DNA of 64,000 bases from Escherichia coli. GTDB taxonomy: Bacteria; Pseudomonadota; Gammaproteobacteria; Enterobacterales; Enterobacteriaceae. The position numbers and the translations under genes are program-made. This document shows, in pieces, positions 13,493 through 60,313 of this stretch (position 1 is its first letter; each line of letters opens with the position of its first letter). The DNA is taken from the NCBI RefSeq assembly GCF_041886205.1, contig NZ_CP169031.1; one strand, given 5' to 3'. The notes under the pieces were generated by a model. It was not told where the DNA came from. It worked only from the letters and a program-made list of their open reading frames with translations, and ran no database searches.

Positions 13493-13509
13493 AAATTTAT
13501 TAGAGCAAA
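13493..13509. promoter_or_regulatory. C1 operator-like site (aaatttattagagcaaa)
   Basis: Match to the asymmetric 17-bp P1 C1 operator consensus ATTGCTCTAATAAATTT (reverse complement), upstream of kilA-repL. Confidence 0.6.
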
Positions 13510-13554
13510 TTTTTCTGACCCGATCCAGATCGGGTTGGACGATCTGCTCAGAAA

Positions 13555-13581
13555 CCTGCCAGTTTGCTGGCAGGTTTTTTT
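13555..13581. terminator. Hairpin with T-run between ant and kilA
   Basis: cctgccag-tttg-ctggcagg followed by ttttttt on the plus strand; a second hairpin lies at 13520-13535. Confidence 0.4.
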
Positions 13582-13587
13582 CTTTTG

Positions 13588-14634
13588 TTAACCTATTGCT
13601 ACTGGTTTTAACAAACCAGCATCAAGTAGCTTGCGAGTTAACCACTGCTGGCCTTTACCCGTTAATTGGGGCGTCAGCCGTATCTGGTAGCCATTTTCAT
13701 CATCCAGCACCACTTCTTTCACCGTGAAATACCCGGCGTTAATGTACTGCTGGCGCGGTACGTTTTTGCGCGCACCAAAAGCCATGAGAATGCCGTTCTG
13801 GCGCAACCATGAGAAAAGGGCGTTTTGCTTAAGTCCAACGACCTTTGCAAAGTTCCCGATCAGGATTCCATTAGCCGCTGATACCCGGTCGGCAAAATCG
13901 ACTTTAGGGGCTGCGGCCACCAGCTGTTGTTCCAACTGCATTTTCTGTTCTGCCAACTCGGCAGCCAGGCGTAGAGCTTCTGGTAATGTTTGGGGGATCG
14001 ATGGGGTAGGGGAGTTTGCCTGCTGCAATTCTTCCAGTTTGTCGATCAGCGAACGGCGGACCGCTTTCGATTCGCGAGCAGCAACGCGCAGGGCTTGTTT
14101 GTATGTCATTACTATAACTACCTGATCCGCTCCACCTTTTTTCTTATCCATAGGGGTTACGAAGATTTCGTAACCCTCCCCATCAAGCTCATCCTTAACT
14201 CTGGCAATGAAATCATTGTTGCGAACTGGTTTTTCGCTACATAATTTCCGTGCCTCATTGACCATCTTTAACAGTGTCAGGCTGTCGATTGTGTCTCCGG
14301 TGTTGGGGATAATATTCACGGCTGGTGCTGGCGTAGCTGACGTAACAGGTGCTGGTTTTTCAACATTCAAATTATTACCGGTCATTCTATGTGCCTCCTT
14401 TCTCATTTCTGCTGCCACTGTTGCGTAACGTAGACGTCCTTGTTCAATCAAATAATCCCTGATCTCGGCTATCAGTAGCCTGTTGATCACAGCCTTATCT
14501 GTTCGGGTATAAAAACGCCTGGTTATCATGAAATAGTTAGCAATTGCGCCGGGGATCTCCCGTGTCGGCATACAGGCAGTATGCAGGGCGATCGCTTCGG
14601 CTATGTCATTACGGGTGACGAGAGGTTTTTTCAT
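13588..14634 (-). CDS. ant1: Antirepressor Ant
   Basis: 348-aa ORF downstream of icd with the ANT/KilA-C C-terminal domain. Confidence 0.75.
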   Translation of the reverse strand: MKKPLVTRNDIAEAIALHTACMPTREIPGAIANYFMITRRFYTRTDKAVINRLLIAEIRDYLIEQGRLRYATVAAEMRKEAHRMTGNNLNVEKPAPVTSATPAPAVNIIPNTGDTIDSLTLLKMVNEARKLCSEKPVRNNDFIARVKDELDGEGYEIFVTPMDKKKGGADQVVIVMTYKQALRVAARESKAVRRSLIDKLEELQQANSPTPSIPQTLPEALRLAAELAEQKMQLEQQLVAAAPKVDFADRVSAANGILIGNFAKVVGLKQNALFSWLRQNGILMAFGARKNVPRQQYINAGYFTVKEVVLDDENGYQIRLTPQLTGKGQQWLTRKLLDAGLLKPVAIG

Positions 14635-14852
14635 AAACCCCCCTGAACGTCGGCAGAGAAGGGGAGGCTCCAGTAACTAAGTGAATTGCGCGAGTTAGTT
14701 GAAAAACGGGCAGTAAAAATGCAGGGGCCATCAGGCAATTGAGAGCGTGCTTCGTCTTCTGTTGCAGCGATAACGAAGTGATAGTGGTGTTTTTTACAGG
14801 AATAGAAACGCCAGATGAATTCTTGGCGTGCGCAAGGATTGGCATTAACCAT
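14631..14852 (-). CDS. icd: Icd (cell division interference protein)
   Basis: 73-aa ORF overlapping the ant start by 4 nt; GAGG RBS 7 nt upstream; immediately downstream of the c4 antisense region. Confidence 0.65.
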   Translation of the reverse strand: MVNANPCARQEFIWRFYSCKKHHYHFVIAATEDEARSQLPDGPCIFTARFSTNSRNSLSYWSLPFSADVQGGL

Positions 14853-14899
14853 AGTTACGGCCTCGTAAGTTGATAAACAACCTGCGACCCGCTGCTAAA

Positions 14900-14990
14900 C
14901 AGGTGGCAGGACGTGACGGGGTTAGCAGACTGGCACTTACGAAACCAGCAGGCCGAAGCCTCCCCATCACGCCCCACCATAATTCGGGCG
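14900..14990 (-). ncRNA. c4: c4-like antisense repressor RNA (approximate bounds)
   Basis: Between a C1 operator-like site (15165) and icd. The transcript would contain cugcuaaccc (14912-14921), complementary to two gguuuagcag target copies, one at 14888-14897 near the icd RBS and one at 15060-15069. Confidence 0.45.
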
Positions 14991-15164
14991 TAACGTGGTT
15001 TACGGACACAAAAATACCGCAATATCGGAAATCTGCGGTTGTCCGCGTAAGTATTCAGGCTGCTAAACCCGGTCGCAGAATTTGCTACGACGGCGGAACT
15101 ATAAGCCTGAACGATTAAAAGGTCAATATGATGCGAAAAGATAGCATTCGCGACTTAAAAATAC

Positions 15165-15181
15165 AAATTTATTAGAGCATT
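15165..15181. promoter_or_regulatory. C1 operator-like site (aaatttattagagcatt)
   Basis: Near-consensus operator at the start of the ImmI operon. Confidence 0.6.
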
Positions 15182-15277
15182 GCTTGTTTAATAAATGCAC
15201 AATTGGATCTAATAACCTCTTTTTTTTAAAGGCGAAAATATGTACCCTAAATGAGTTATAAGGCAGGTGAGGTTATA

Positions 15278-15769
15278 ATGAGAAAACTATTACTACCGTT
15301 ATTATTTATGGCTGGGACTGTTAATGCAGCATCAAGCGTGAAGGAGATTTGTACCGATTATACGAAATACCTTGGGCACGTTTACGGCTTTGCTGTCAGT
15401 CAAGACGAATCCATGCGCAAGAAGTTACTGTCAGATATGAAACGTCTTAAACTTTCTGAAGCGATGGTGCAGCAAGAACTATATAAAGTCGCAACCAACG
15501 AAAATGCTAAATATCAATATTCTCGCCTATTAAATCCCGACGCAAACGAGATCAATCGAAGCACTTTCGATTATATGGTAAAGGCATGCGAAACCGCTCC
15601 TGATTTTGCTATCCCTAGCTGGGGTGTGCTGGTGGCGAGCAATGCCGTTAATAAAGAAGATGTTGGAAGAAATGGCATTGACTCAATAAGAAATGCCCCA
15701 GGAATGCGCCATCAAAACGTACAGGGTACGCTTGAAGAACGAGCCAGGGGGCCGGGTGTAGCCCCATAA
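15278..15769 (+). CDS. Secreted hypothetical protein (Sec signal peptide)
   Basis: Start MRKLLLPLLFMAGTVNA with an AxA cleavage motif; 2 Cys in the mature part; the C-terminus shares a GMR..VQGTLEERARG motif with Sit. AT-rich gene. Confidence 0.55.
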   Translation: MRKLLLPLLFMAGTVNAASSVKEICTDYTKYLGHVYGFAVSQDESMRKKLLSDMKRLKLSEAMVQQELYKVATNENAKYQYSRLLNPDANEINRSTFDYMVKACETAPDFAIPSWGVLVASNAVNKEDVGRNGIDSIRNAPGMRHQNVQGTLEERARGPGVAP

Positions 15770-15857
15770 TTTTATAAATAATATTAAATTCTCTGGGCAT
15801 AGTGGATCTAACAATATGGACTATGCCTATAATATCTAAAAACAAAAGGATAAAAAT

Positions 15858-16364
15858 ATGAAATTGTATAAGTCATTGTATAGCTTTTTATTAATGTCCT
15901 CTTTTCTGCCATTATCAGCAATGGCAGGTTCTACCGTTTGGACGGTAGGAGGTGAGCAAGGGTGGAGAGAAATCTCTGCAACCAATGACGATGGTTACAC
16001 AATTAACTTTTCTTGTGATGCTGGAGCAAGGGAAGGTTCAGAAGATCATATCGCTGGAAGAAATTTGTATGTAAGCGGAGGAAAAGAGAATGCCGATTTT
16101 TCTACACGCGACACAATATCACGTAAAGCAGATGTAATTACTTTAATTGTTGGCCCGGATAGTTTTAATATTGGCACGCAAAACACTGCTCCTAATCGTA
16201 GGGAATGGTATTCATTTTGGAAGGCAGTGTCATCTACAAATGAAAAAAACATAGATGTATATATCGGTTCGAGTCGAATCACATCATTCACTCTGGATGG
16301 TATTTCCAGTATTTATACAGAAGCTAAAAATGACGGGTGTTTAAAACAAGATGACGGTGAATAA
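15858..16364 (+). CDS. Secreted hypothetical protein (Sec signal peptide)
   Basis: N-terminus MKLYKSLYSFLLMSSFLPLSAMA; 168 aa; AT-rich; overlaps the next gene by 14 nt. Confidence 0.55.
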   Translation: MKLYKSLYSFLLMSSFLPLSAMAGSTVWTVGGEQGWREISATNDDGYTINFSCDAGAREGSEDHIAGRNLYVSGGKENADFSTRDTISRKADVITLIVGPDSFNIGTQNTAPNRREWYSFWKAVSSTNEKNIDVYIGSSRITSFTLDGISSIYTEAKNDGCLKQDDGE

Positions 16365-17424
16365 AGTGAAGGATATTAAACACATTTCGCTTAACTCTAA
16401 TAATAAAGCTGAAGGCACTGCCTTTTATGATTATTTAAATGAAATTAAAGGAGTGAGGCATAAAAAGATAAGTGGTTTATTAAATTCAGAATATATTTAC
16501 AAGAGTTTAGTTAAACAGTTTGGAACAGTTAAAAAACAAGAATTAATTAATGATTGTTTTCGAAAAGAACTTGAGTCTTTACCAAAAGTTACGAGAATTG
16601 CACACCAGTTTCGTGAACAAATGGTATTTTTACAGAAACAGTATCAGGCGGCTTTTCCCAGTGATGCAAATGAGCATATTCAAATAATTAAAAATCAAGC
16701 TGAAATGGCTATGCCGTTACGAAAACACTCAGAAGCCATTAATAAGATAGCTGGCTTAAATAATATGGAGGAGGTATTTAAAGAATTACACTCTAATATA
16801 AATTACAAAATTAAGATAAGCAAAGATATTAAAGAAATAATAAAGCAGTATAATAAAACAAGAAGTGTATTATTAGAGCAAGTAGTAGAGCTTGGGCTTG
16901 TTACTATCGCGCAGGCTTATGCTAATGATTCTATAAAATCAGCGCATACCGAAAGTGAGCATCAAAACAAAGGATTTAATAAATCTAGTTCGACGTTTTT
17001 TGATTCATTTAAGGCGCTTCCTTCTCCTATTCAGATCTTCCTTCTGTGGATTTTTTATCAAGTGGTGCTTGGCGCTATAACTGATTATGCAAAAGAAAAG
17101 ACATTATCGCAAATTTACAAGATGGAATCATATCTTCTATCTCTAAATGAGGATAAGCCAATATCTAAGCAAAAGCTAACACAAGAAAATAAAGATATTC
17201 AGTGGGAGGATCTTAATAATTTTAGAGCTATAACAGGTGATAACGTAAGGTTGCATGTCGGCCCTTCTTTAAATAGTGAAGTGATTGAATGCATTGGCAA
17301 AAACACAATTGTTGCTATTTTAGATAAGAAAGATCGTCAATGGCTTTACGTGCAGGTTAAATCAGGGGATGAGTTTATTACTGGTTGGATTACACGAACA
17401 TACACAAAGCCTCTTAAGGCTTGA
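16351..17424 (+). CDS. Membrane protein with C-terminal SH3b-like domain
   Basis: 357 aa; predicted single TM helix (IQIFLLWIFYQVVLGAI); C-terminal RLHVGPSLNSEVI...GWITRTY resembles bacterial SH3b. Lys/Asn-rich, AT-rich codon usage. Confidence 0.55.
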   Translation: MTVNKVKDIKHISLNSNNKAEGTAFYDYLNEIKGVRHKKISGLLNSEYIYKSLVKQFGTVKKQELINDCFRKELESLPKVTRIAHQFREQMVFLQKQYQAAFPSDANEHIQIIKNQAEMAMPLRKHSEAINKIAGLNNMEEVFKELHSNINYKIKISKDIKEIIKQYNKTRSVLLEQVVELGLVTIAQAYANDSIKSAHTESEHQNKGFNKSSSTFFDSFKALPSPIQIFLLWIFYQVVLGAITDYAKEKTLSQIYKMESYLLSLNEDKPISKQKLTQENKDIQWEDLNNFRAITGDNVRLHVGPSLNSEVIECIGKNTIVAILDKKDRQWLYVQVKSGDEFITGWITRTYTKPLKA

Positions 17425-17554
17425 ATTTTATCTCCGCATCTTCGGATTGGGTGTTGATGACGATGTGCTACTTGAAGCACTTGAGTTGTTTTAACGTAGT
17501 ATCTGAAATGTGTAGACTGACCGGTAACAAATGACAACTCGTAGAATCGGTTAA

Positions 17555-18145
<591 letters not shown>

Positions 18146-18155
18146 GGGGGCTGAT

Positions 18156-18767
18156 ATGGGGCTTAATGTTGCTTCAGTAAAGTCTTATGTATCTTCGGCA
18201 TTAACGACGACATTATTTGGCTCCGGCGTTGGTGAGCGGGAAGTTGGTAAGCTGACGTCAATCATCATGAACAAAATGCTGTTCGCGCAAGGATGGCAGT
18301 TCTCTGTCGAAGTTGATGGACTGGAGGGGGCAGATTTCTTTGCCAAAGATATTACCTACCACGATTACAGCATCGAATATGAAACGATTAAAATCGGCGG
18401 AGGGAATATCCTTCAGCCAACGGAGCGTTCGCCTGGGCAGATAACGATGATGGTCAGGGATACCGTTGATGGCCTCGTTTTGGACTGGTTTAAGACGGCA
18501 AAAAGTCGGGTGATCAATCCGGACGGTACCGGGAATATACCGTCTAAATATTTGCTCAATGTGCGTATTTATCGGTTGCTGTCCTCCGGTTTAACCAAAC
18601 TGGAAAATGAGATGACGGTATTCCCGGTCACTACCGGCGATGTCACCTATGCGCGAGATCAGGTTACTGAATTTAAGTCATTCCCAATGACCTTCGCATT
18701 GCACAGCACGTTTAACCAATCCTCAAGTTCTTTGGCTTCCCTTCTGGGCTTTAGCTTTTCTCTTTGA
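18156..18767 (+). CDS. Hypothetical morphogenetic protein
   Basis: 203-aa ORF, tightly packed. Confidence 0.45.
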   Translation: MGLNVASVKSYVSSALTTTLFGSGVGEREVGKLTSIIMNKMLFAQGWQFSVEVDGLEGADFFAKDITYHDYSIEYETIKIGGGNILQPTERSPGQITMMVRDTVDGLVLDWFKTAKSRVINPDGTGNIPSKYLLNVRIYRLLSSGLTKLENEMTVFPVTTGDVTYARDQVTEFKSFPMTFALHSTFNQSSSSLASLLGFSFSL

Positions 18768-18781
18768 ATTAAGGAGCAAGG

Positions 18782-43125: not shown

Positions 43126-43131
43126 GTTAAA

Positions 43132-44513: not shown

Positions 44514-44530
44514 TAAATTAATTAGAGCAA
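44514..44530. promoter_or_regulatory. C1 operator-like site (aaattaattagagcaat)
   Basis: Operator consensus match immediately upstream of ssb. Confidence 0.55.
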
Positions 44531-44557
44531 TAATGTATATCTTTGAAACGTGGCTAA

Positions 44558-45222: not shown

Positions 45223-45469
45223 ACTCCGGCAGCTCCGCCGACTTTCGACAATGAAGTTATCGCTGGCGGCGATAGTTTTTGACTCGATTTTCATGGCGGT
45301 ATATGTGCTCAATGAGACGTGGCCACTGGAACCGCTATTGTATGCCGGGCTTCGGCTGTGCCTGACATTTTTGAGCATGGCTGCGAGATTGATGCAGCAG
45401 AAAGAAACCGCTTCAGATTGTCCACGCCGCGCGGTGCGCAAATATATGGCACGAAGGCGAAGGCGATAA
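45209..45469 (+). CDS. Small membrane protein downstream of lyz (possible lysis accessory)
   Basis: 86-aa ORF with a hydrophobic segment and Arg-rich C-terminus; overlaps the lyz 3' end. Weak support. Confidence 0.3.
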   Translation: MSMNKLRQLRRLSTMKLSLAAIVFDSIFMAVYVLNETWPLEPLLYAGLRLCLTFLSMAARLMQQKETASDCPRRAVRKYMARRRRR

Positions 45470-45482
45470 TAGTTAACGAGAA

Positions 45483-45508
45483 CCCCGGCAGCTGCCGGGG
45501 TTATTTTT
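45483..45508 (+). terminator. Rho-independent terminator
   Basis: ccccggcag-ctgccgggg followed by ttattttt. Confidence 0.6.
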
Positions 45509-45513
45509 GGTGG

Positions 45514-48244
<2,731 letters not shown>

Positions 48245-48277
48245 TTAATTAGAATAATTCGCATCGTGTTTGAACGG

Positions 48278-48297
48278 AATTTAACACTAGTCACTTG
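48278..48297 (-). promoter_or_regulatory. Late-promoter-like element (minus strand): caagtgact, 5 nt, taaatt
   Basis: Reverse complement of aatttaacactagtcacttg; upstream of prt. Confidence 0.4.
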
Positions 48298-48310
48298 TTA
48301 AGGATTACCA

Positions 48311-51300
48311 ATGAACAAGCTATCTATGGGGGTGTTTCGCTGTTCAAGTGTCAGCGAAATATTAAAATACATTAGGGCAATAACATCTCACCGAGCGCCG
48401 ATTAAATACGGCGTGGAAAAGGTGGAAGGCAAAAGCTATGACCGACTGCGCCGGGAGGCGAATCAGAAGGCGATAGATTTGCTTAATTCGCTGGTGGACG
48501 GCGCGACACTGACAGATGAACAGCGCCAGATCCTGGCTGGGTACACCGGTGAAGGCGGCATTGGCGGGTCCGTCTCCGAATATTACACACCAAAGCCGAT
48601 CGCTGAAGGTGTCTGGGAGATCATGAAGCTCTACGGCGCGGACGTAGGTAACACTCTGGAACCATCGGCGGGAACCGGCGTTTTTAATGAGACAAAGCCG
48701 GTTGGTACGGTGATGACCGCGACTGAGATCAGCAGTGTTTCCGGTCGTATAAACCAGTTGTTACACCCGGAAGACAGCGTACAGATTTCCCCGTTCGAAC
48801 AGCTGGCTGTAAGCACGCCTAACGATTCATTCGACCATGTTGTGGGTAACGTTCCGTTCGGCGGTCGTGATAACACACGCAACATCGATAAGCCTTACGC
48901 AGAAGAAACGGACATGGGTTCTTACTTCATGCTCCGCATGCTGGACAAGATAAAGCCTGGCGGATTCATGTGTGTGATTGTGCCGCCGTCCATTGTTTCA
49001 GGTTCAAACATGAAGCGGTTACGCCTGCGCCTATCACGGAAAGCTGAATTTCTTGGCGCTCACCGCTTGCCTACCGGTACTTTTGACGCAAACGGGACCA
49101 GTACAGTCGTTGATGTGGTGCTGATGCGCAAACATCCGGCAGAGATGGCTGAGAAAATCCCCCTGGTGGATGAAGGCACTCTTGAATCGGCAAATGTGCT
49201 TTGGCCAACGTTTATTTCTGGCAAGTGGTTTGAAAAGGATGGCCGCCGGTTTGTTCATGGCACCCAGGAAAAGGGCTTCCAGGGGCGTATTGAGGTTCGT
49301 GCCGACGGTCAGATTGATAACCAGGCTCTTAAAGCGAAGCTGATTCATCGTTTCGAAAGCCGTATCGACTGGTCTTTGCTCGATATGGCTGAACCGTCAC
49401 CGACCGCAGACGTTGTTGGTGAAGGGGAAATGCGCCTGATTAATGGTGTATGGCAAAAATATGCTGGTGGTCGCTGGATTGAAGCTGATGCCGGGAAGGA
49501 ACTTAAGATCGATGCTGCCAGTTATGGCGCGGATAGCTGGGAGGCTCTTCAGCGTAACCTGACTACAACAGAAGGCCGTCTCGGCATGACATTTACCCAG
49601 ATGGCAAATGTCCGCGATAAGTACACCACATCAATCAGCGACGATATGGTGCAGCTGGTGGACTGGATTAACAGCCAGCCTGAAAAATACCGTGAACGCT
49701 TGTATCGCGGGGCGATGATTGGCCGGATGTTAATTGAATATCAGGACATGAAGGCCGCCGGGCATAGTGCTGAACAAATCGAACAGCAGCGCCTTTCTCT
49801 GGTATCCCGTTTGCAGGCAGAGATTGACCGTTTTGGTAACCCCGGTCGCGGTCCGATAGCGAAATTGTCGGGGAGCGGTGCGCGCGCCTGGTTTGCTTTC
49901 CGTGGTGCGATTAAGCTGGATGGCACTATTTCTGACGAGCTGACAGGAAAGCTGGTTACGCATGATTCCAGCGCCAGTTATGACTACACCAGCTATCAGG
50001 ACACCCTGCGTTATCTCTATAGCGATCTCACCCGCGATCCAATCCAGCTCGATGATTTCCGCCTTGCGTTTACCGGCGAACTGCCAGCCAGTGATGAAGA
50101 GTTGCTTAATTTATTGGCCAGCACCCCTGGTATTGCGGTTTCACCGTATGGCGGGATTGTTCCGTTCGCCCGCGCCACCAGCGGCGACATTAACGAGATA
50201 GTGGCTCCAAAACAGGAATTCCTCGCCACACTCCCCGACGGTCCAGTAAAGAACAACGTCCTTAATCAGCTGGCAGCTATCGAAGAGAAGCGCATCAAGA
50301 CGCCAGCAGAGAATATCCGGTTTAAGCTCAATAGCCGTTGGTTCGACCGTTCCGTCATTCTGGAATTTTTGCAGGAAAACGGCTATCCGGATCTGCGCTA
50401 TGTGCAGTCAGTGCAGCTGGAAGGCGACGAAATGGTTTCTGACACCTATCACGGTGGTGATGGTCTGTTCGTCGGGCACCGATACGGTGTCGTCCAGCGC
50501 AAGGATAAAGAAACAGGTGAGATTCGCTACGAGTGGGACCGTAAATCAGGTGAAAACGCGACCGGGTTCCCGGCACAGCTGGAAAAGTATCTCAATGGTG
50601 CGCGTATCGGTGGCAAAGATAGCGCGACGGCGAACGGCTACCGCGAGCAGATGGCACTGCTTGAGGACCAGTTCAATAAGTGGATCAAGACGCACGATCG
50701 CTACGATGAGCTGGTTGCCAAATACAACGATGTGTTCAATAGCAATATCCCGTATGAACACTCTGGCGATCCGCTTGGGTTGAAGGGATTAAGCGGTAAG
50801 CGCCAGCCATTTGATTACCAGAATAGCGAGGTGCGCCGACTGTCCGAAGATGGGCGCGGCATCCTGGGCTTCGGCACCGGGCTGGGTAAAACCACGACCG
50901 CGCTGGCGCTTGAGGCGTTCAACTATGAGAACGGTCGCTCCACCCGTACTGCGTATGTAGTGCCTAAATCAGTGCTGGAAAACTGGTATTACGAAGCAAA
51001 AGAATTCCTGAGTGAAGAGGCATTCAGTAACTACCTGTTCGTCGGTCTTGATGTGCTGATGGATGGCGATCAGATTCGCCAGGTGCAGGTGCTCGATGAG
51101 AACGGTAAACCTGTTCTTGGTACTGATGGCACTCCAGTTATGCGCGATGCTCTTAAGCTGGCAGATGAAGCCACTATCACGGCGCGGATGAACGCGATCC
51201 CGCACTCAAATTACCGTGCAGTCGTGTTTACCAAAGAACAATACGCCCGCATTCCGCTACGTGATGACACCGTAGATGAGCATGCACAGGATATGCTTTA

Positions 51301-54300: not shown

Positions 54301-55078
54301 GGCAATGGACGCAGCAAGCGCGCGCATTGCAGCAGAACGGAAAGTCAATCTGAATCATGCAGTCGCCGCGCTGACTCAATCGTGGGTAACAGCAATCAGG
54401 GAGGCCGCCACCACAGGGAAAATCACACCGGCAATTGCGGATGTCGTAAACGACGGCTCTAAATTTATGGATGCCTATCAAATGGATGCGGTGCAGTTGC
54501 CATCAGCCTATGGGCAACTCAGCTATCGCATGACCTACAACCTGGTATCAATGTTTACCGACCTTGCCATCCTTGGGCTGGTGGACCTTAACGAGGTTAC
54601 GCCGGAATTGCTCAGCATGCGCAAGAATCATGTGGAGATATTGCACAGAATTAACACGGTACTTGCCGGGCGCACCGATGAAGAGAAACAGGCAGACGCT
54701 GATCGGATAAACCTGGCCCTTGGCAACATCACGGAGGAAGAAATTGCCGCCAGAAACGAGAAACAAGAAGAGTTATCATCAATACAGGGTGATGCCACCA
54801 GCATAGCTCAGTCTCTTGGTCTGAATTATCGCGTATCCACCGCCGACCTGAAGATGATGTACGCACCAAAATTCGCCGCTGGCGAGGTATTTGGGCTTCA
54901 GGAAGCCTCCGGCATGAAAGGGGTTCTTTTCCGTGCGAAAGACGCAATCAAGGCGAAATTCGGCGCTCGCTGGTTGCCAGCGAAGGCGAAGAACAGCGAC
55001 TTCCCAGGTAACTGGTGGATTATCGAGACAAAACACAACGTGGCGGACGTTCTGGCCGTCATCCAACAATACGCATAA
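48311..55078 (+). CDS. darB: DarB antirestriction protein (N6-adenine methyltransferase plus helicase)
   Basis: 2255 aa; MTase motif I (EPSAGTGVF) and IV (NVPFGG); helicase Walker A (GTGLGKTT), DEGH box (IADEGHNY) and motif VI (QRNGRGARVG). Confidence 0.85.
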   Translation: MNKLSMGVFRCSSVSEILKYIRAITSHRAPIKYGVEKVEGKSYDRLRREANQKAIDLLNSLVDGATLTDEQRQILAGYTGEGGIGGSVSEYYTPKPIAEGVWEIMKLYGADVGNTLEPSAGTGVFNETKPVGTVMTATEISSVSGRINQLLHPEDSVQISPFEQLAVSTPNDSFDHVVGNVPFGGRDNTRNIDKPYAEETDMGSYFMLRMLDKIKPGGFMCVIVPPSIVSGSNMKRLRLRLSRKAEFLGAHRLPTGTFDANGTSTVVDVVLMRKHPAEMAEKIPLVDEGTLESANVLWPTFISGKWFEKDGRRFVHGTQEKGFQGRIEVRADGQIDNQALKAKLIHRFESRIDWSLLDMAEPSPTADVVGEGEMRLINGVWQKYAGGRWIEADAGKELKIDAASYGADSWEALQRNLTTTEGRLGMTFTQMANVRDKYTTSISDDMVQLVDWINSQPEKYRERLYRGAMIGRMLIEYQDMKAAGHSAEQIEQQRLSLVSRLQAEIDRFGNPGRGPIAKLSGSGARAWFAFRGAIKLDGTISDELTGKLVTHDSSASYDYTSYQDTLRYLYSDLTRDPIQLDDFRLAFTGELPASDEELLNLLASTPGIAVSPYGGIVPFARATSGDINEIVAPKQEFLATLPDGPVKNNVLNQLAAIEEKRIKTPAENIRFKLNSRWFDRSVILEFLQENGYPDLRYVQSVQLEGDEMVSDTYHGGDGLFVGHRYGVVQRKDKETGEIRYEWDRKSGENATGFPAQLEKYLNGARIGGKDSATANGYREQMALLEDQFNKWIKTHDRYDELVAKYNDVFNSNIPYEHSGDPLGLKGLSGKRQPFDYQNSEVRRLSEDGRGILGFGTGLGKTTTALALEAFNYENGRSTRTAYVVPKSVLENWYYEAKEFLSEEAFSNYLFVGLDVLMDGDQIRQVQVLDENGKPVLGTDGTPVMRDALKLADEATITARMNAIPHSNYRAVVFTKEQYARIPLRDDTVDEHAQDMLYDFVAAGRVASAMDSDSHRKEAARRRVLSEYSDTGTEKAEKYPYFEDMGFDSVIADEGHNYRNSYKNGREASQLAYLPTSAVAQSARDMAIKNAYLMKKNGGRGPVLLTATPVVNTPIDAYNMLSHVLPKEYWQNMGIYGPDDFVKFFGKTRLETVQKISGEVEEKMALVGFENLDALRGIFHRWVTLKTAEDVKDTVEIPELDEHQQDAPLTEEQLAAYEELRQQAEAAAKANNGVTTSVNEDGVIEHEKARPIFSIIRDMDRVCTDMDLYYRRITYRFLPEYADAVQQLADSLPKQATSEDDDSDDSITQQSQYSLIDKGEFIQLQVPEAFEQEVNKRLARFGIDEQTVTHPVTPKYAKLIATLKEFFPEGKQIIFTDEKTQHQKLKRIICNALNLEPSKVGILNAQTVAEAGKTGKKLKAVKPPKELPDEPTDAQIAKYNEQMALYDAYIAQQNEMSLGGLEKIAADFQEGRTPIIICNKKAEVGINLHRGTTDIHHLTLPWTPASIAQRNGRGARVGSNRASVRVHYYCGKGSFDEYRLKTLKRKAGWISDILRSDKSEMENADANDMIEMQMYAAKDDGERLAMMQVQMDKAKAAQRARQKEQATIDLQNYIKAQHAAGEDVEVLTAELERSKAELEKTTAEVAKFKQAAMAKAADNADWKARWGSVHHTDRMLLAQYRASLKSAIQRKANISQAISRYEKLLNRTQKAATDIKRLRPLVEDALNKGILDVDPDLVNHASEFLVIGDRSWRVGQYYDCAGDIVRIKSLDFDSQRADVEIIFTFKGTKSGNWDVKTLDKQVDVTPDEDAVMQKISGGVSIAGINDIVSCDDFYRFQQRGMIKITDSYGVQTTESGYSIDFVGTYTDPLKHAVYPDRRDGALKSSIAKWVLGMMSEGNNRQIRSAEAFLVELFGSNYGDVIASYGDTLSPEAIQEKIADAIARMPEKTSQGATRNGDSELEVTNAIFGTNEFRASDYEITTAQFGTIGIYSNKDEIKQAMDAASARIAAERKVNLNHAVAALTQSWVTAIREAATTGKITPAIADVVNDGSKFMDAYQMDAVQLPSAYGQLSYRMTYNLVSMFTDLAILGLVDLNEVTPELLSMRKNHVEILHRINTVLAGRTDEEKQADADRINLALGNITEEEIAARNEKQEELSSIQGDATSIAQSLGLNYRVSTADLKMMYAPKFAAGEVFGLQEASGMKGVLFRAKDAIKAKFGARWLPAKAKNSDFPGNWWIIETKHNVADVLAVIQQYA

Positions 55079-55111
55079 CAGGAGCGCCCGGTTCGCCGGG
55101 CGTCGCATAAT

Positions 55112-55552
55112 ATGGCCACACTATCTGATACAATAAAACCGAATAAAACATATCTTGAGGCGGTACTCCGTACAGCGTTGTTAGGAAAGACAGAAGACGA
55201 ATACGTTGATTTCTTCCTGTCAGGGCTACGCGGGCGATTACTGAAAAATCCCCGCCTGTACCGCAGCTATGGTCCATACTGGCCGGAAATTAAAAAATTA
55301 TTACTGGAGCGCGGTTATGGTAATTTCGGTCGTCTCGTTGACCGTGACGTTCGCAAAATTTACCGTTATGACCGCCCGGCGCTAACACTCATAGCCGCGA
55401 CGCTCTATAGCCAGGAGCGTTTTGATAATGGTCAGATATACTCAGCCTGGCATTTACTGCCAGTGCCTGAAGAAGTTGACGACCAGGACTATGAGTTTGA
55501 GTCTTACGATTTGGAAGTTGAAGCCTTGGCACAGGCTGGAGAGAAAACTTGA
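55112..55552 (+). CDS. ulx: Ulx-like protein
   Basis: 146-aa ORF directly upstream of and overlapping the lxc-like gene. Confidence 0.5.
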   Translation: MATLSDTIKPNKTYLEAVLRTALLGKTEDEYVDFFLSGLRGRLLKNPRLYRSYGPYWPEIKKLLLERGYGNFGRLVDRDVRKIYRYDRPALTLIAATLYSQERFDNGQIYSAWHLLPVPEEVDDQDYEFESYDLEVEALAQAGEKT

Positions 55553-55797
55553 AAAAGCGATACTACACAGTAAAGCATGGGACGCTACGAGCATTACAAG
55601 AGTTTGCTGACAAGCATAACGTTGAGGTGCGCAGGGAAGGGGGAAGTAAAGCTCTGCGCATGTACCGTCCGGACGGGAAATGGCGTACAGTCGTCGATTT
55701 CAAAACAAACAGTGTTCCCCAGGGCGTCCGCGACCGGGCATTCGAAGAATGGGAGCAGATCATCATAGATAATGCATTGCTTCTCAATGCTGATTGA
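55549..55797 (+). CDS. lxc: Lxc/Bof-like C1 corepressor
   Basis: 82-aa ORF following darB-ulx; assigned by position and size. Confidence 0.5.
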   Translation: MKKRYYTVKHGTLRALQEFADKHNVEVRREGGSKALRMYRPDGKWRTVVDFKTNSVPQGVRDRAFEEWEQIIIDNALLLNAD

Positions 55798-55879
55798 GTT
55801 TTGTTGGCCCGGTTTGCACCGGGCGTTTCACAAACAATCAACTGGTTTGTAGTTCCTGCGGCGAGATGAATTATTAATA

Positions 55880-56488
55880 TTATCGTGGTGCCGATGATGC
55901 GATAGCCTGTATGATGTTATCAATATCGTTATCGTTCAGCATGAATATAGGTACACCATTAGAGTTTGCATTTTTTTCAGTGCTCATCAAACAAAGCCCC
56001 TCATACATGCCGCGAGTTTTTTTGAAATTGGCGACTGATGGAGTGGTGTAATTTCCTTTAAAGTGCATTCCGGCTGATTCATAAAAAGGAACCAAATCAG
56101 ACTGGCAAATCAAAGCGACCTCATTTGGAAATGCAAGTATTTCTGCCAGTATATTACTTCCAAGTCCATTACCACGATATTGCTCATATACATATATTTT
56201 ATGACAGTACAACGGAAAATTTCCCGATGGATGTCCGAAGATTAAGGCGTATCCGAACAAGTTTTCTTCATTAGTAAAGCCCATAATGCGCAAATGACCG
56301 GCTCGGTAACACTCTTCAAAAACGTTAATTATGTAGCTTCTCGCTGCTTTCAGCTCCTCTTCTGTCGGGAACATCATCAACCCCATAAGCGATGGAGTAT
56401 AGGCCAGATCCTGAAGAATCCCATTAGCTTCATTTTCGAAAATTAGCGGTAAGTGCGGTACAATTTCATTTGCCGAGGTATTAGACAT
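55880..56488 (-). CDS. GNAT-family N-acetyltransferase
   Basis: 202 aa; motif A (YVYEQYRGNGLGSNILAEIL) and motif B-like (VPFYESAGMHFKG). AT-rich gene with its own AT-rich upstream region. Confidence 0.65.
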   Translation of the reverse strand: MSNTSANEIVPHLPLIFENEANGILQDLAYTPSLMGLMMFPTEEELKAARSYIINVFEECYRAGHLRIMGFTNEENLFGYALIFGHPSGNFPLYCHKIYVYEQYRGNGLGSNILAEILAFPNEVALICQSDLVPFYESAGMHFKGNYTTPSVANFKKTRGMYEGLCLMSTEKNANSNGVPIFMLNDNDIDNIIQAIASSAPR

Positions 56489-56496
56489 AGTATGGT

Positions 56497-56520
56497 GAGT
56501 CCTTTGTTTTCAAAGGACTC
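56497..56520 (-). promoter_or_regulatory. Perfect 10-bp-stem hairpin in the GNAT leader, overlapping the likely Shine-Dalgarno
   Basis: gagtcctttg-tttt-caaaggactc; on the mRNA it ends 8 nt before the ATG and contains the only SD-like aagga. Confidence 0.45.
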
Positions 56521-56686
56521 ATGTTATCAGTGATAATCGTTTGTTGTAATAGTGTTGATAAAATAATTTTCTATTATGTAAGCAAGCTCATTTTTATGAC
56601 GGGTAATGCAAAAAAAATAGAATCAAAAAACTAAAAAATAATAATTCATGGGGTTTTACACCATCAAAAGTCCCCACTATAAATTA

Positions 56687-57328
56687 TTAGAAATAATTAT
56701 GCTTGCCTGTTAATACCCCTTTCGGCACTTTTTTTTGTTCCAGTGTCTGGGTACCCAGAATTATGTTAATAAGTGGACTTAGTAACGATGGTTCCTGGCG
56801 GGCTTCAACTTCTCCAGCCATTGCCCTGATGTAGTCGGCGCTGGCAACGTTGTTGTATTCCGTCGCAAAGCAACATAGTAATGTCAGAACATGCTCTGTC
56901 GTTATTTCGCTCCAGTTGATGTTGAAAAATTCATCGCCTTTTTTATCGTGTTCGGAATCGAAGATGCTTTGGTGGAGGATGTATTTGCCGGATTCCTTGC
57001 GCGGTAACTTGATCGCTTTCTGGCGTTCCAGCTCCTTGTAAATCTGCATTGCTTCAATCAGTACCGGCCTGCCGTTCATGAAGGGATCGCGCAACCTTAC
57101 ACGCTGGCCAACTCGACCAGTAATAAAGCTGTTTTCCTCTTCCACCAGCACGATAAAACCCTTTTCCTCTTTTTCTCGCAATTCGCGCAGCAGCTGGAGT
57201 TCCATGTCGCGGCGGCGTTCAGGGTAGCTGGTCCGCTCAGCCATTATCAGCTCGTTGTTGATCCATGCAGCAGTCATTGACGCCGGTTTGCCGACGCTCA
57301 TCGAAACAACGCATATTTTCTTATCCAT
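56687..57328 (-). CDS. Hypothetical protein
   Basis: Track ORF of 222 aa (to 57355); likely start MDKKICVV at 57328. Preceded on the minus strand by a late-promoter-like element (57469-57477). Confidence 0.45.
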   Translation of the reverse strand: MDKKICVVSMSVGKPASMTAAWINNELIMAERTSYPERRRDMELQLLRELREKEEKGFIVLVEEENSFITGRVGQRVRLRDPFMNGRPVLIEAMQIYKELERQKAIKLPRKESGKYILHQSIFDSEHDKKGDEFFNINWSEITTEHVLTLLCCFATEYNNVASADYIRAMAGEVEARQEPSLLSPLINIILGTQTLEQKKVPKGVLTGKHNYF

Positions 57329-57516
57329 AGCGCCCCTACAAAAAAGAAAAGCCACCAGCGGCGGCTTAGCAATACAACTGAAGGTAGCGCCCGGTACTCA
57401 GACTGTGCCGTCCATGGAATATTTGAAAAGGGATCCATCCGTACCGGGCGTGTGATGATTCTGACTCAAGTCACTTGTCAGTTGTCAATCATTTAAGATT
57501 AAAAATAATATATTTA

Positions 57517-58077
57517 TTAGTGCATAATGTTTGCCATTTCATAGGCGTCAGCCAGCAACTCCATCTCTGACTTGTTCAACAAGGTGAATTCTTTCTTGCC
57601 TCCTACCACGCCATCGGCATGAACAGGGACCAGCCAGGGGTATTTTTCTCTTACTTCAGCCGGTGCTGCATGCTGGTGGTGCCATCTGCAAAGGGGCAAT
57701 TGCTTTTTGTGACAACCCGGCGCGGTACGACCGGAGATATGGTGCAGAGACACCTCTTCAGATATTACTCCATGCATGTAGCAGGCAATGCAGGGGAGAG
57801 TGCCAAGAGCATTGGCGATAGTCTGTTCCTCCTCCGTCGGTGTTCGCCCCTTCAAGCCACGAGATTTTATTTTTACCGCACTTTTCCGCGTTTTGCTGGC
57901 TGGTGGGCGCTCTTTCTGTTTAGCGATACGGCGGTCGATAGAATCCCGCATTTTCTGATATTGCGATTCTCGCCAGGCGGGGTCAGCCAACTTTTCCCGT
58001 TGCCGAGCGATCGCTCGTTCTCTGGCTGCCTTCTGCCACTCGCGGCGCTGTTCAAGTTTTTGTTCGATTGTTTTCAT
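57517..58077 (-). CDS. ref: Ref recombination enhancement function (HNH endonuclease)
   Basis: 186 aa from MKTIEQK; C-terminal HNH-like Cys/His cluster (CIACYMHG...HHISG...CHKKQ...CRWHH); C1 operator-like site upstream. Confidence 0.75.
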   Translation of the reverse strand: MKTIEQKLEQRREWQKAARERAIARQREKLADPAWRESQYQKMRDSIDRRIAKQKERPPASKTRKSAVKIKSRGLKGRTPTEEEQTIANALGTLPCIACYMHGVISEEVSLHHISGRTAPGCHKKQLPLCRWHHQHAAPAEVREKYPWLVPVHADGVVGGKKEFTLLNKSEMELLADAYEMANIMH

Positions 58078-58177
58078 ATGGCAAAAAAAAGGCGGCCTAA
58101 TGGCCGCCAATGATGTCAAGGAGTGAAGTAATGGCAACGTCTTCGTAGTTGACAAAAACTGCGGCCAAATTATAACA

Positions 58178-58192
58178 ATCAATTAGAGCAAT
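58178..58192. promoter_or_regulatory. C1 operator-like site (atcaattagagcaat)
   Basis: Operator core match about 100 bp upstream of ref. Confidence 0.5.
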
Positions 58193-58225
58193 GGTAGATA
58201 TTTTGTTTCTCGCGAATCACATTTT

Positions 58226-58328
58226 TTCACTTCAGTACCTGTGTGCTATACTCCTTCTTGATTGATTGGATGCGGAATACAAACCCGCTCTTTTGTGCAG
58301 CCTGGCTCCTTGCCAGGCTTTTTTTTAT
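58226..58328 (+). ncRNA. Candidate small RNA transcription unit
   Basis: Plus-strand extended -10 (tgctatact at 58244-58252) with a ttcact -35-like hexamer, then a plus-oriented intrinsic terminator (agcctggc-tcct-tgccaggct plus T9) at 58299-58328. No plausible plus-strand CDS. Confidence 0.3.
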
Positions 58329-58636
58329 TTCATCATGGAAGCTGTTAACGCTTTGGACCTTGCTGAACTGATTGAAAGGGCATTGTTTACCTTACCCAGG
58401 AGTTTGCCAAATTCCCCCATCACTCTAGTAAGCCCGCGCCGCGCTTCCTCCTCCGTTGCATTCATCACAAAATGTTCAGCACTCCGCATGCTTTTAACGG
58501 GGAACGCAACAGATATCGAGTCGATATCAGGCATCCTATCGCTCAACTTTACGGTGACAATGACAGATGGCGACAGAATATTAGTGCTTACAGACAGCAC
58601 TACATATTTTCCGTCGATGTTGAAATCCTTTCTCAT
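58325..58636 (-). CDS. cra: Cra-like small protein between cre and ref
   Basis: Minus-strand ORF (track 58325..58672) between cre and ref; a C1 operator-like site at 58656-58669 overlaps the track start, so an internal start (MRKDF, 58636) is preferred. Confidence 0.35.
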   Translation of the reverse strand: MRKDFNIDGKYVVLSVSTNILSPSVIVTVKLSDRMPDIDSISVAFPVKSMRSAEHFVMNATEEEARRGLTRVMGEFGKLLGKVNNALSISSARSKALTASMMK

Positions 58637-58686
58637 ATGCCACCATAAATACCAAAGAATTAGAGCAATCATTTACGCGTTAATGG

Positions 58687-59718
58687 CTAATTGCCATCTT
58701 CCAGCAGGCGCACCATTGCCCCTGTTTCACTATCCAGGTTACGGATATAGTTCATGACAATATTTACATTGGTCCAGCCACCAGCTTGCATGATCTCCGG
58801 TATTGAAACTCCAGCGCGGGCCATATCTCGCGCTGCTCCGACACGGGCACTGTGTCCAGACCAGGCCAGGTATCTCTGACCAGAGTCATCCTTAGCGCCG
58901 TAAATCAATCGATGAGTTGCTTCAAAAATCCCTTCCAGGGCGCGAGTTGATAGCTGGCTGGTGGCAGATGGCGCGGCAACACCATTTTTTCTGACCCGGC
59001 AAAACAGGTAGTTATTCGGATCATCAGCTACACCAGAGACAGAAATCCATCGCTCGACCAGTTTAGTTACCCCCAGGCTAAGTGCCTTCTCTACACCTGC
59101 GGTGCTAACCAGCGTTTTCGTTCTGCCAATATGGATTAACATTCTCCCACCGTCAGTACGTGAGATATCTTTAACCCTGATCCTGGCAATTTCTGCTATA
59201 CGTAGCAGGGTATTATAAGCAATCCCAAGAAATGCCAGATTACGTATATCCTGGCAGCGATCGCTATTTTCCATGAGTGAACGAACCTGGTCGAAATCAG
59301 TGCGTTCGAACGCCAATGCCTGTTTTGCACGTTCACCGGCATCAACGTTTTCTTTTCGAATCCGCCGCATGACCAGTGAAACAGCATTGCTGTCACTTGG
59401 TCGTGGCAGCCCGGACCGACGATGAAGCATGTTTAGCTGGCCCAAATGTTGCTGGATAGTTTTTACTGCCAGACCGCGCGCCTGAAGATATAGAAGATAA
59501 TCGCGAACATCTTCAGGTTCTGCGGGAAACCATTTCCGGTTATTCAACTTGCACCATGCCGCCCACGACCGGCAAACGGACAGAAGCATTTTCCAGGTAT
59601 GCTCAGAAAACGCCTGGCGATCCCTGAACATGTCCATCAGGTTCTTGCGAACCTCATCACTCGTTGCATCGACCGGTAATGCAGGCAAATTTTGGTGTAC
59701 GGTCAGTAAATTGGACAT
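58687..59718 (-). CDS. cre: Cre tyrosine recombinase
   Basis: 343 aa starting MSNLLTVHQNLPALPVD, recognised as Cre; loxP lies about 420 bp upstream. Confidence 0.95.
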   Translation of the reverse strand: MSNLLTVHQNLPALPVDATSDEVRKNLMDMFRDRQAFSEHTWKMLLSVCRSWAAWCKLNNRKWFPAEPEDVRDYLLYLQARGLAVKTIQQHLGQLNMLHRRSGLPRPSDSNAVSLVMRRIRKENVDAGERAKQALAFERTDFDQVRSLMENSDRCQDIRNLAFLGIAYNTLLRIAEIARIRVKDISRTDGGRMLIHIGRTKTLVSTAGVEKALSLGVTKLVERWISVSGVADDPNNYLFCRVRKNGVAAPSATSQLSTRALEGIFEATHRLIYGAKDDSGQRYLAWSGHSARVGAARDMARAGVSIPEIMQAGGWTNVNIVMNYIRNLDSETGAMVRLLEDGN

Positions 59719-59725
59719 TTAACAC

Positions 59726-59947
59726 TCAGATAATGGTTTTAAGTAAAGTGTACAGGATCGGCTCTGCCTTTACCTGTTTATGGTTCTCGTCATAGAAACG
59801 CCAGCGACCGCGCGTGCGTTCTATTTTCTCTTCACCGCGCGATAATGACAGTTGGCAACTATCACGATCAAACCCTTTTGCCCGCCAGTAACCACGGTTT
59901 TTCTCAAGCTCAAGATGAGTGGACACTTTAGCAGCTGAATATCCCAT
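59726..59947 (-). CDS. Small ORF in the cre leader (uncertain)
   Basis: 73-aa ORF between the TGATCA cluster and cre; no clear RBS. Confidence 0.25.
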   Translation of the reverse strand: MGYSAAKVSTHLELEKNRGYWRAKGFDRDSCQLSLSRGEEKIERTRGRWRFYDENHKQVKAEPILYTLLKTII

Positions 59948-60043
59948 TTTTCACCTCTGATTGATTGGTGGTGCTAAGTGCGCTACGCGAAATCTGGAGC
60001 ACTAACACTGCCAACTTTTCACAGATTTTACGTAGCGCAACCT

Positions 60044-60118
60044 TGATCAAATGATCAAGTGATCACTATTTGACCTGATAAGGTATTGAACTGTATGGAT
60101 TTACAGGTAAATTGATCA
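60044..60118. promoter_or_regulatory. Cluster of four TGATCA (Dam GATC) sites upstream of cre
   Basis: TGATCA at 60044, 60052 and 60060 (exact 8-bp spacing) and at 60113; consistent with the Dam-methylation-sensitive cre promoter region described for P1. Confidence 0.5.
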
Positions 60119-60136
60119 TGTTCAATAACCCTTAAG

Positions 60137-60170
60137 ATAACTTCGTATAATGTATGCTATACGAAGTTAT
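60137..60170. other. loxP: loxP site
   Basis: Exact ataacttcgtata-atgtatgc-tatacgaagttat. Confidence 0.97.
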
Positions 60171-60213
60171 TAGGTCTGAAGAGGAGTTTACGTCCAGCTG
60201 CGCATAAAAATCA

Positions 60214-60230
60214 ATAATTATTAGAGCAAT
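60214..60230. promoter_or_regulatory. C1 operator-like site (ataattattagagcaat)
   Basis: Consensus match between loxP and coi. Confidence 0.55.
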
Positions 60231-60296
60231 AAATTTTGAGAGAAAAATCCCACTCCACCAGCCAAAAACTGGATTGTTTTTCATAGTTGTTTGACA

Positions 60297-60313
60297 ATTG
60301 CTCTAATAAATTA
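60297..60313. promoter_or_regulatory. C1 operator-like site (attgctctaataaatta)
   Basis: Near-perfect consensus in the opposite orientation to the 60214 site; preceded by ttgaca. Confidence 0.6.

Follow-up and report, generated by a model that had tools for sequence, protein, structure and literature searches.

Here, we report the map of C1 operator-like sites in a 64,000-nucleotide stretch of Escherichia coli DNA (NCBI RefSeq assembly GCF_041886205.1, contig NZ_CP169031.1; the window), which by its sequence is a P1-type genome segment with immC, immI, lytic replicon, ssb, and ref/mat units. The motif matches, taken as a whole, are very probably the C1-controlled operators of these P1-type units. 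The map is that of the published P1 regulon in a close relative, already known and not new; the only point that goes beyond textbook knowledge is a candidate site upstream of c8, which is a modest refinement and adds no new mechanism.

The element is a P1-like phage-plasmid, collinear with P1 (91-98% identity over the relevant blocks) and in the orientation opposite to the P1 reference. The curated map of the window held 62 genes (92.5% coding, 7.5% intergenic). Repressor, co-repressor, and antirepressor were identical to those of P1 or nearly so: Lxc and Coi were 100% identical, C1 matched P1 C1.100 at 282 of 283 residues (the sole difference being residue 193, G versus C), and identities on the antirepressor side were 90.6% (Ant1), 95.9% (Icd), and 89.6% (c4 RNA). 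The C1 modulators Lxc, Coi, and Ant1/2 and the c4 RNA are thus all encoded in the window. The closest plasmid record (NZ_AP028823), left aside as a gene map, was 99.9% identical to the window over positions 9000-17600 and diverged from it elsewhere, with mer and resistance transposons and a P1-type par. The regulator genes named below were located as follows.

60872..61723, plus strand: c1, repressor gene
55549..55797, plus strand: lxc (bof), gene of the co-repressor that tightens C1-operator binding
60552..60761, plus strand: coi, gene of the C1 inactivator

A weight matrix was trained on 19 of the 20 monovalent operators annotated in P1 (AF234172; the very weak Oc1b omitted, the strand of Omat in that record corrected), which scored 15.4 to 27.8 bits on their own matrix. 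The P1 operators share the 17-bp consensus of the window sites and are placed alike with respect to the corresponding genes and promoters. Out of the 11 monovalent P1 operators annotated in these blocks, 10 were kept at the orthologous position (0-1 changes per site; 0-3 mismatches per promoter block), and the operator/promoter blocks of ssb, c4, kilA, ref, mat, c1, coi, and cre were all found. The other P1 operators (Odmt, Oban, O26, Oppp, OpmgR, OpmgT, and Olpa) fall in genome sequence beyond the window. Positions and identities of the sites and promoter blocks, like the identities of the regulators, were observed directly.

13493..13509, minus strand: OrepL (former Op53), TTTGCTCTAATAAATTT, 24.4 bits, annotated in P1; PkilA, the promoter of kilA-repL, has its -10 (TCTAAT) in this site (35-nt PkilA/OrepL block identical to P1 49792-49826)
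15165..15181, minus strand: Oc4 (former Op51), AATGCTCTAATAAATTT, 26.0 bits; adjoins P2c4/P1c4 of the c4-icd-ant operon (84-nt block identical to P1 48140-48223)
44515..44531, minus strand: Ossb (former Op21), ATTGCTCTAATTAATTT, 26.3 bits; between P2ssb and P1ssb (68-nt block, 2 mismatches to P1 20986-21053)
57510..57526, minus strand: Omat (former Op2b), TATGCACTAATAAATAT, 19.7 bits; overlaps the ref stop codon, upstream of Pmat/LPmat (T for C at position 1 in the alignment with P1; 3 mismatches in the block)
58176..58192, minus strand: Oref (former Op1/Op2a), ATTGCTCTAATTGATTG, 20.6 bits; within P2ref (identical to the P1 operator)
60214..60230, minus strand: Oc1e (former Op99e), ATTGCTCTAATAATTAT, 25.0 bits; at the P4cre -35, facing cra and cre (A for C at position 16 relative to P1; 46-nt block, 1 mismatch to P1 94724-94769)
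60297..60313, plus strand: Oc1d (former Op99d), ATTGCTCTAATAAATTA, 25.9 bits; between the -35 (TTGACA) and -10 of P1coi (30-nt block identical to P1 94634-94663)
60589..60605, plus strand: Oc1c (former Op99c), ATTGCTCTAACGCTTTA, 15.4 bits; inside coi (identical to P1 94349-94365)
60761-60777, plus strand: Oc1a, AATGCACTAATAAATCT, 23.3 bits; half of the bivalent Oc1ab
60772-60788, minus strand: Oc1b, ACGAAAATAATAGATTT; other half of Oc1ab (60761..60788), which overlaps the -35 of Pc1 (44-nt Pc1/Oc1ab block identical to P1 94150-94193)

The first-pass annotation had read 17-bp matches as C1 operator-like sites that define the immunity regulon, which is supported here: the sites are C1-type, named P1 operators lie at the strong ones, and its assignments to kilA-repL, c4-icd-ant, ssb, ref, and coi/c1 agree with them. 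The sites that it placed do exist, but four starts are corrected here (44514, 58178, 58656, and 60762 to 44515, 58176, 58653, and 60761, respectively), and Oc1c and Oc1b were missing from its list. P7 (AF503408) annotates Op(ref), Op(c4), Op(rep), Op(rap), and a hypothetical Op(pro), which match the window sites one to one.

Searching the whole window with the consensus (up to 3 mismatches) returned 8 matches against 0.33 expected, a count reached by 0 of 100 shuffles. Matrix matches numbered 12 at 15 bits or more (0.53 expected) and 9 at 19 bits or more (0.04 expected; 300 dinucleotide-preserving shuffles in both cases), with 8 of these 9 in the 7.5% of the sequence that is intergenic (binomial P = 8e-9). 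The 12 sites scored 15.4-26.3 bits, within the range of the training sites, and the 17-bp sites fit the asymmetric consensus ATTGCTCTAATAAATTT with its conserved core ATTGCTCTAAT. Scored against a threshold, the sites thus exceeded shuffled expectation and were enriched between genes, where the first-pass annotation had named a lack of enrichment over shuffled sequence as the outcome that would tell against it.

It is very improbable that the matches are, as a set, chance occurrences of an A+T-rich motif without regulatory meaning. Such a motif does recur by chance: the maximum score in whole-window shuffles was 18.4 bits at the 95th percentile, and about 1 match per window to the 11-mer core with at most 1 mismatch was expected by calculation. 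Chance fits one site in particular, which lies antisense within a gene in DNA of about 30% G+C.

16866..16882, minus strand: motif match CTTGCTCTAATAATACA, 17.9 bits, antisense inside the SH3-domain gene of the sim-position module

This match kept 10 of the 11 core positions (local P = 0.007), yet it occurred only in alleles 99% identical to the window and was absent from homologues of 51-62% identity, and it was rejected as a sim-position operator. The earlier view that the sim-position module has no operator therefore needs amending in the letter, as a 17.9-bit match is present, though probably not a functional one; the parallel view of the GNAT module holds, as it has no credible operator and only a 12.5-bit match (at 56179, inside the ORF of the GNAT gene; local P = 0.07). 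Neither this match nor that at 9118 (AATGTTCTAATAAACTA, 13.7 bits; upstream of ORF 9150-9782) was counted; the latter breaks the invariant C5 (local P = 0.09), and its constancy among relatives is just that of the conserved block around it. Against chance stand the 9 matches at 19 bits or more, their intergenic placement, and the ten sites orthologous to annotated P1 operators, so that chance is refuted for the strong sites and stands only for 16866, 9118, and 56179.

Published accounts cover the asymmetric consensus and what C1, Coi, Lxc, and Ant do (PMC8546580; for Lxc, also P1 record AF234172), and ssb, kilA, dmt, ban, and ref are reported to be induced in a C1-dependent manner (PMC4713147). 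Because annotated operators, promoter blocks, and regulators are conserved, the regulatory features of the P1 reference can be transferred with confidence to the annotation of the window element; it is from the work on P1 that we infer actual C1 binding and repression here. C1 would bind each asymmetric 17-bp site via the conserved 5' core and, since these lie on or next to sigma-70 promoter hexamers, bound C1 would block RNA polymerase. In the plasmid prophage, it would silence kilA-repL, c4-icd-ant, the ssb operon, ref, and mat and autoregulate coi and c1; Lxc would strengthen C1 binding, and Coi and Ant1/2 would inactivate C1, opening the regulon.

One further site, weak in the window, probably belongs to the regulon as the counterpart of the hypothetical C1 operator of P7.

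48365..48381, minus strand: weak site ATTGCCCTAATGTATTT, 17.3 bits, within darB codons 19-24

LPpro follows 69 nt downstream of this site, whose position relative to the start predicted for PdarB is about +103 (P = 0.006 for the match within darB). The site is identical to P7 20923-20939, annotated as Op(pro). Four diverged darB loci carry ATTGCTCTAATAAATCT at the same position, a full consensus of 26.6 bits. Against it, the window site has a C at position 6, which is seen in 0 of the 19 training operators, and it sits in coding sequence with a conserved IRAI peptide. Phage D6, taken as an outgroup, showed no match at the darB site, a result that is uninformative because its weight depends on the specificity of the D6 repressor.

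The ssb operon does include the gene first annotated as DUF2829-like, which is DUF2829/Tad2-like.

44007-44495: ssb
43132-43977: Tad2-like gene
42343-43125: ORF with an IsaA C-terminal match

A crude consensus scan found no minus-strand terminator within 42200-44700, and hence none between the Tad2-like gene and ssb. By its position, the Tad2-like gene is under predicted C1 control as a passenger of the ssb operon.

Repressor control had also been proposed for the ParA-like region (ParA-like gene, 10429-11484), with a weak candidate at 11734, which is the start of an 11-nt core within a longer remnant.

11728..11744, minus strand: remnant of Orlf (former Op55), ATTGCTCTAATCTGGAG, 6.3 bits, with the exact 11-nt core and the 3' half replaced

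The remnant lies 3 nt past the repL stop codon, with the ParA-like gene downstream. Orlf is full in P1, and P7 likewise has a P1-type rap/rlf module with a full Op(rap), whereas downstream of repL in the window no full 17-bp Orlf was found, its last six bases (3') being lost; just the core is kept because repL is followed by another module (ParA-like and DUF3892 genes), and homology to P1 stops right after that core. This allele was present in 60 of the 74 compared sequences. Orlf was the only case in which an operator coincided with a module boundary; operators were rejected as module-exchange junctions, the boundaries at the sim and res/mod positions not lying at operators.

Direct C1 control of the ParA-like gene through this core-only remnant is improbable. 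The exact core is kept in both alleles found after repL, and Oc1c is an annotated P1 operator despite a 3' half far from consensus; nonetheless, the remnant scores 6.3 bits where every training operator scores at least 15.4, it directly adjoins the end of repL, some 290 nt away from the likely ParA-like start codon, and read-through from PkilA needs no extra site. Crude consensus scans found no terminator between repL and the ParA-like gene and no consensus promoter nearby. Most likely, C1 control extends to the ParA-like gene through transcripts that read on from PkilA, itself under OrepL, and not through the truncated Orlf, a reading that the crudeness of these terminator and promoter scans leaves weak. 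The remnant is weak evidence for the direct-operator part of the earlier proposal, and read-through from PkilA is the more economical route to repressor control.

The remaining site, previously assigned to a cra-like gene, lies in the cre-c8 intergenic spacer; cra itself is at 59726-59947.

58653..58669, minus strand: candidate "Oc8", ATTGCTCTAATTCTTTG, 19.3 bits, in the cre-c8 spacer

Between the end of cre and candidate Oc8 are 17 nt, and a further 16 nt separate it from the ATG of c8 (58636). Its core was intact in 72 of 83 relatives, and nucleotide diversity was 0.018 in the core versus 0.34 in the adjoining 17 nt. The distant P1-like Cronobacter phage JK004 (MZ188976; C1 77%, Cre 79%, and C8 50% identical to those of the window), whose record has no regulatory annotation, carries P1-consensus operators around its c1 and coi homologues. 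A further one, ATTGCTCTAATAATTTA (24.6 bits), precedes its c8 homologue by 20 nt, its strand matching that of the window site, in a spacer that cannot otherwise be aligned with the window. Conservation of the core beside a hypervariable spacer and its recurrence in JK004 support a place for the c8-proximal site in the C1 regulon, to which it probably belongs. Unlike the window, P1 and P7 have ATTGCTATAAT here, a variant with A in place of C7, a base invariant in 19 of 19 training operators. Neither the P1 nor the P7 record annotates an operator at the c8 site, and a full-text literature search with the core motif returned PMC8546580 alone, which names no operator before c8.

A bound site would make c8, a lysogeny-establishment gene, repressible by C1, either by way of an extended -10 (TGCTCTAAT) that the site overlaps or by blocking the passage of transcripts from cre or Pc8. 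The conserved element might instead be a promoter -10/extended -10 (TGCTCTAAT / TGCTATAAT) whose likeness to an operator is a by-product, which we consider rather unlikely. The P1/P7 variant, which occurs with two distinct spacer haplotypes, is a perfect extended -10; the P1 record has TCTAAT as the -10 of an established promoter, PkilA; and the missing operator annotation in P1 and P7 would fit as well. However, ATTGC is conserved besides TCTAAT, so that the entire 11-nt operator core is kept; the JK004 site fits an operator through its 3' half too, in an unrelated spacer; and relatives vary at positions 12-14, as known operators do. A further reading, somewhat less likely than not, is that P1-like phage-plasmids inherited the site as a functional C1 operator from their ancestor, in which case the C-to-A change of P1 and P7 would have destroyed the core while creating the perfect extended -10 (TGCTATAAT).

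The map reveals accessory cargo riding in operons predicted to be C1 repressed, most clearly the gene with a Tad2-type anti-Thoeris domain behind ssb, which would be expressed once repression is lifted. If C1 binds the c8-proximal site, the regulon defined in P1 and P7 would be incomplete for most natural relatives. Were the site indeed an ancestral operator lost in P1 and P7, c8 would belong to the C1 regulon of most natural relatives, a control missed by work on P1, and the shut-off of c8 after the establishment of lysogeny would differ between natural elements and P1.

C1 operators were sought by scanning both strands of the window with a weight matrix built from 19 of the extracted P1 operator sequences. 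The P1 record (AF234172) annotates 20 monovalent C1 operators and two bivalent features, which probably account for the "22 operators" given for P1, along with the asymmetric consensus ATTGCTCTAATAAATTT, in PMC8546580. Twelve sites scored at least 15.4 bits, inside the training-site range, with a clean gap below them (next, 9118 at 13.7 bits and 56179 at 12.5 bits; all others <11.5 bits). Over 300 dinucleotide-preserving shuffles, 12 sites of at least 15 bits compared with 0.53 expected and 9 of at least 19 bits with 0.04 expected; consensus matches with up to three mismatches numbered 8 (0.33 expected). Eight of the nine strongest sites were intergenic (P = 8e-9; curated 62-gene map, 92.5% coding). 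The first-pass annotation had reported C1 operator-like sites and proposed that a lack of intergenic enrichment relative to shuffled sequence would refute them; given the excess and the intergenic bias, that refutation fails, and the sites are confirmed, their coordinates needing only slight correction.

Ten of the 11 operators annotated in the corresponding segment of P1 were kept, and the remaining P1 operators fall outside the window. Positional matches to named P1 operators (former names in brackets) were as follows:

13493, OrepL (Op53)
15165, Oc4 (Op51)
44515, Ossb (Op21)
57510, Omat (Op2b)
58176, Oref (Op2a)
60214, Oc1e
60297, Oc1d
60589, Oc1c
60761, Oc1a
60772-60788, opposite strand, Oc1b

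The P1-annotated promoter blocks around the sites were all present with 0 to 3 mismatches (P2ssb/P1ssb, P2c4/P1c4, PkilA, P2ref/P1ref, Pmat/LPmat, Pc1, P1coi, P4cre, and the LexA box with P2coi). C1 matched the P1 c1.100 protein at 282 of 283 residues (sole difference, residue 193), and Coi and Lxc were identical to the P1 proteins; therefore, P1 operator specificity applies directly. By analogy with P1, C1 at sites overlapping promoter hexamers would block transcription of the lytic-replication, antirepressor, ssb, ref, and mat units and would autoregulate coi and c1, with Lxc expected to stabilise C1-operator complexes and Coi and Ant to inactivate C1. This is the textbook P1 mechanism, from which we infer C1 binding to the sites in the window. 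The map is that of the known P1 C1 regulon in a close relative; its earlier interpretation as the immunity regulon of this element was largely right but is not new, since the sites are the named P1 operators.

The c4 antisense RNA (14902-14978, minus strand) shared only 89.6% identity with its P1 counterpart and Ant1 (13588-14634, minus strand) 90.6%, whereas C1 was essentially identical; judged from this divergence, immI specificity may therefore differ from that of P1, with immC unchanged.

Local BLAST against AF234172 showed collinearity with P1, in reverse orientation, across the window:

1-1148, repA/incA region, P1 match
1148-3525, non-P1 module, different par type
3525-9056, genes 23 to bplB, P1 match
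9056-11734, non-P1 module at the rlf position, ParA-like and DUF3892 genes
11734-15417, repL, kilA, ant, icd, and c4, P1 match
15417-17526, non-P1 module at the sim position, PTP-like/simA-domain, hypothetical, and SH3-domain genes
17526-27770 and 35314-42311, tail, dar, and lysis genes, P1 match
32204-35314, non-P1 module, IS66-family element
43121-43806, non-P1 685-nt insertion in the ssb operon
43806-55795, ssb through lxc, P1 match
55795-56687, non-P1 module, GNAT gene at the res/mod position
56687-60153, mat, ref, c8, cre, and cra, P1 match
60154-64000, immC, pacB, and pacA, P1 match

The 56- to 62-kb part matched P1, P7, phiW39, SJ46, and other Punavirus records at 96 to 99%. The par genes (1255-3428) were only ~65% identical to P1 parA/parB at the DNA level, hence the different par type. 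The IS66-family set, between cin and lydC, was complete (HTH_Tnp_1 ORF, TnpB_IS66 ORF, and DDE_Tnp_IS66 transposase). The place of the sim genes (15278-17424; ~30 to 40% G+C) was taken by the PTP-like/simA-domain, hypothetical, and SH3-domain ORFs, and that of EcoP1 res/mod by a single GNAT acetyltransferase ORF (55880-56488, minus strand). Upstream of mat (57300-57440), a G run (~57335) has lost one base relative to P1, which puts the 30 initial codons of the P1 Mat annotation in another reading frame; the intact mat ORF starts at ATG 57328 (213 amino acids), and a terminator-like hairpin (57349-57367) lies just before the start.

The GNAT module held no credible operator, as had been claimed. 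At the sim position, 16866-16882 matched 10 of 11 core bases (locally improbable, P = 0.007) but was rejected as a functional operator, because it lies antisense within the SH3-domain gene, in DNA of ~30% G+C, and is confined to 99%-identical alleles, being absent from homologues at 51 to 62% identity.

At the rlf position, identity to P1 covers the repL stop codon and runs to the end of the 11-nt core ATTGCTCTAAT; the two sequences diverge completely beyond it, which leaves a truncated Orlf (ATTGCTCTAATCTGGAG, 11728-11744) whose 17-mer scored 6.3 bits. Among 74 sequences (72 IMG/VR repL loci, P1, and the window), the P1 allele (…TTATAAC) followed repL in 14 and the non-P1 allele (…CTGGAGTCACCTGGCGTTTTCAG) in 60, the window included, with at least three different modules beyond. 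The block replacing P1 Orlf sequence in those 60 (ATTGCTCTAATCTGGAGTCACCTGGCGTTTTCAG; window 11694-11747; loci L088-L164) therefore marks a module-exchange boundary. The ParA-like gene (10429-11484, minus strand) encodes a second ParA-family ATPase, an orphan, and adjoins the DUF3892 gene (10071-10358). Its suggested repressor control through the Orlf remnant is possible but unsupported: with 6.3 bits, and neither a minus-strand terminator nor a consensus promoter found between repL and the gene, cotranscription from OrepL-controlled PkilA is the simpler route to C1 control.

A further site, ATTGCCCTAATGTATTT (48365-48381), lies within the first 24 codons of darB. The same sequence is unannotated in P1 (17166), whereas the P7 record (AF503408) carries an identical feature as "hypothetical monovalent C1-controlled operator Op(pro)," predicted to control proA and proB expression. 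ATTGCACTAAT, a core variant also found in known operators, occurred in 6 of 80 darB loci, and four diverged loci (85 to 86% protein identity) had a 26.6-bit site, ATTGCTCTAATAAATCT. The peptide IRAI is conserved here, so coding constraint explains part of the conservation; a weak operator, as already predicted for P7, is plausible.

The proposed ssb operon was borne out in structure. A 281-amino-acid ORF (43132-43977, minus strand) lies 29 nt beyond ssb (44007-44495), the next ORF begins 6 nt past it, and no minus-strand terminator was found between the three. The C-terminal 89 residues of the 281-amino-acid ORF are, by homology, a Tad2-type anti-Thoeris domain (Pfam PF11195, E = 2e-22; solved structures 9eib [ModTad2, E = 9e-20] and 8v3e [Tad2], E about 1e-19). 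Its first ~57 residues are the N terminus of P1 IsaA, and the next ORF is the C-terminal 260 residues. P1 isaA (P1 21569-22531) thus corresponds to two ORFs (42343-43977) separated by the 685-nt insertion; this arrangement reflects either a deletion that produced a fused IsaA in P1 or the acquisition of the Tad2-like segment inside isaA by this element.

The site labelled cra-like in the first-pass annotation sits instead in the 50-nt cre-c8 spacer:

58653-58669, candidate c8 operator, ATTGCTCTAATTCTTTG, 16 nt upstream of the c8 ATG (58636); P1 variant, ATTGCTATAATTATTTG

Among 83 sequences (80 IMG/VR cre loci, P1, P7, and the window), diversity was 0.34 in the hypervariable 17 nt from the cre stop codon to the site vs 0.018 in the 11-nt core, which was intact in 72, a TATAAT variant in 8, and CTGAT in 3. 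In both P1 and P7 the sequence before c8 is ATTGCTATAAT, which has lost the C at position 7 that is invariant in 19 of 19 training operators. Replacement of this C by A disrupts the operator core and makes a perfect extended −10, TGCTATAAT; the change lies on two different spacer haplotypes in P1 (1485-1501, L001) and P7 (L005, L267), and L008, L018, L056, L028, L059, and L080 are listed with them. In the distant P1-like Cronobacter phage JK004 (MZ188976; C1 77%, Cre 79%, and C8 50% identical), the cre-c8 spacer is unalignable, yet ATTGCTCTAATAATTTA (24.6 bits) precedes the c8 homologue by 20 nt, in the strand orientation seen in the window. The P1 matrix found five sites of at least 24 bits in this unannotated phage (L264; 932, 1719, 1803, 4458, and 7410), all in a 9-kb region around c1, cre, and c8, so operator specificity seems to be retained at 77% C1 identity.

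These comparisons are good evidence that the c8-proximal site is a functional element. A promoter element that is not a C1 operator could also be conserved before c8, but this is less likely than a C1 operator doubling as −10 supplier, the most likely reading because the established PkilA likewise has its −10, TCTAAT, within OrepL. No operator is annotated at the site in P1 or P7, and it alone among the sites considered appears to be unannotated in the references inspected. We give somewhat less than an even chance to the wider proposal, in which most natural P1-like elements keep c8 under C1 control and the allele of P1 and P7 is a derepressing, promoter-up form.
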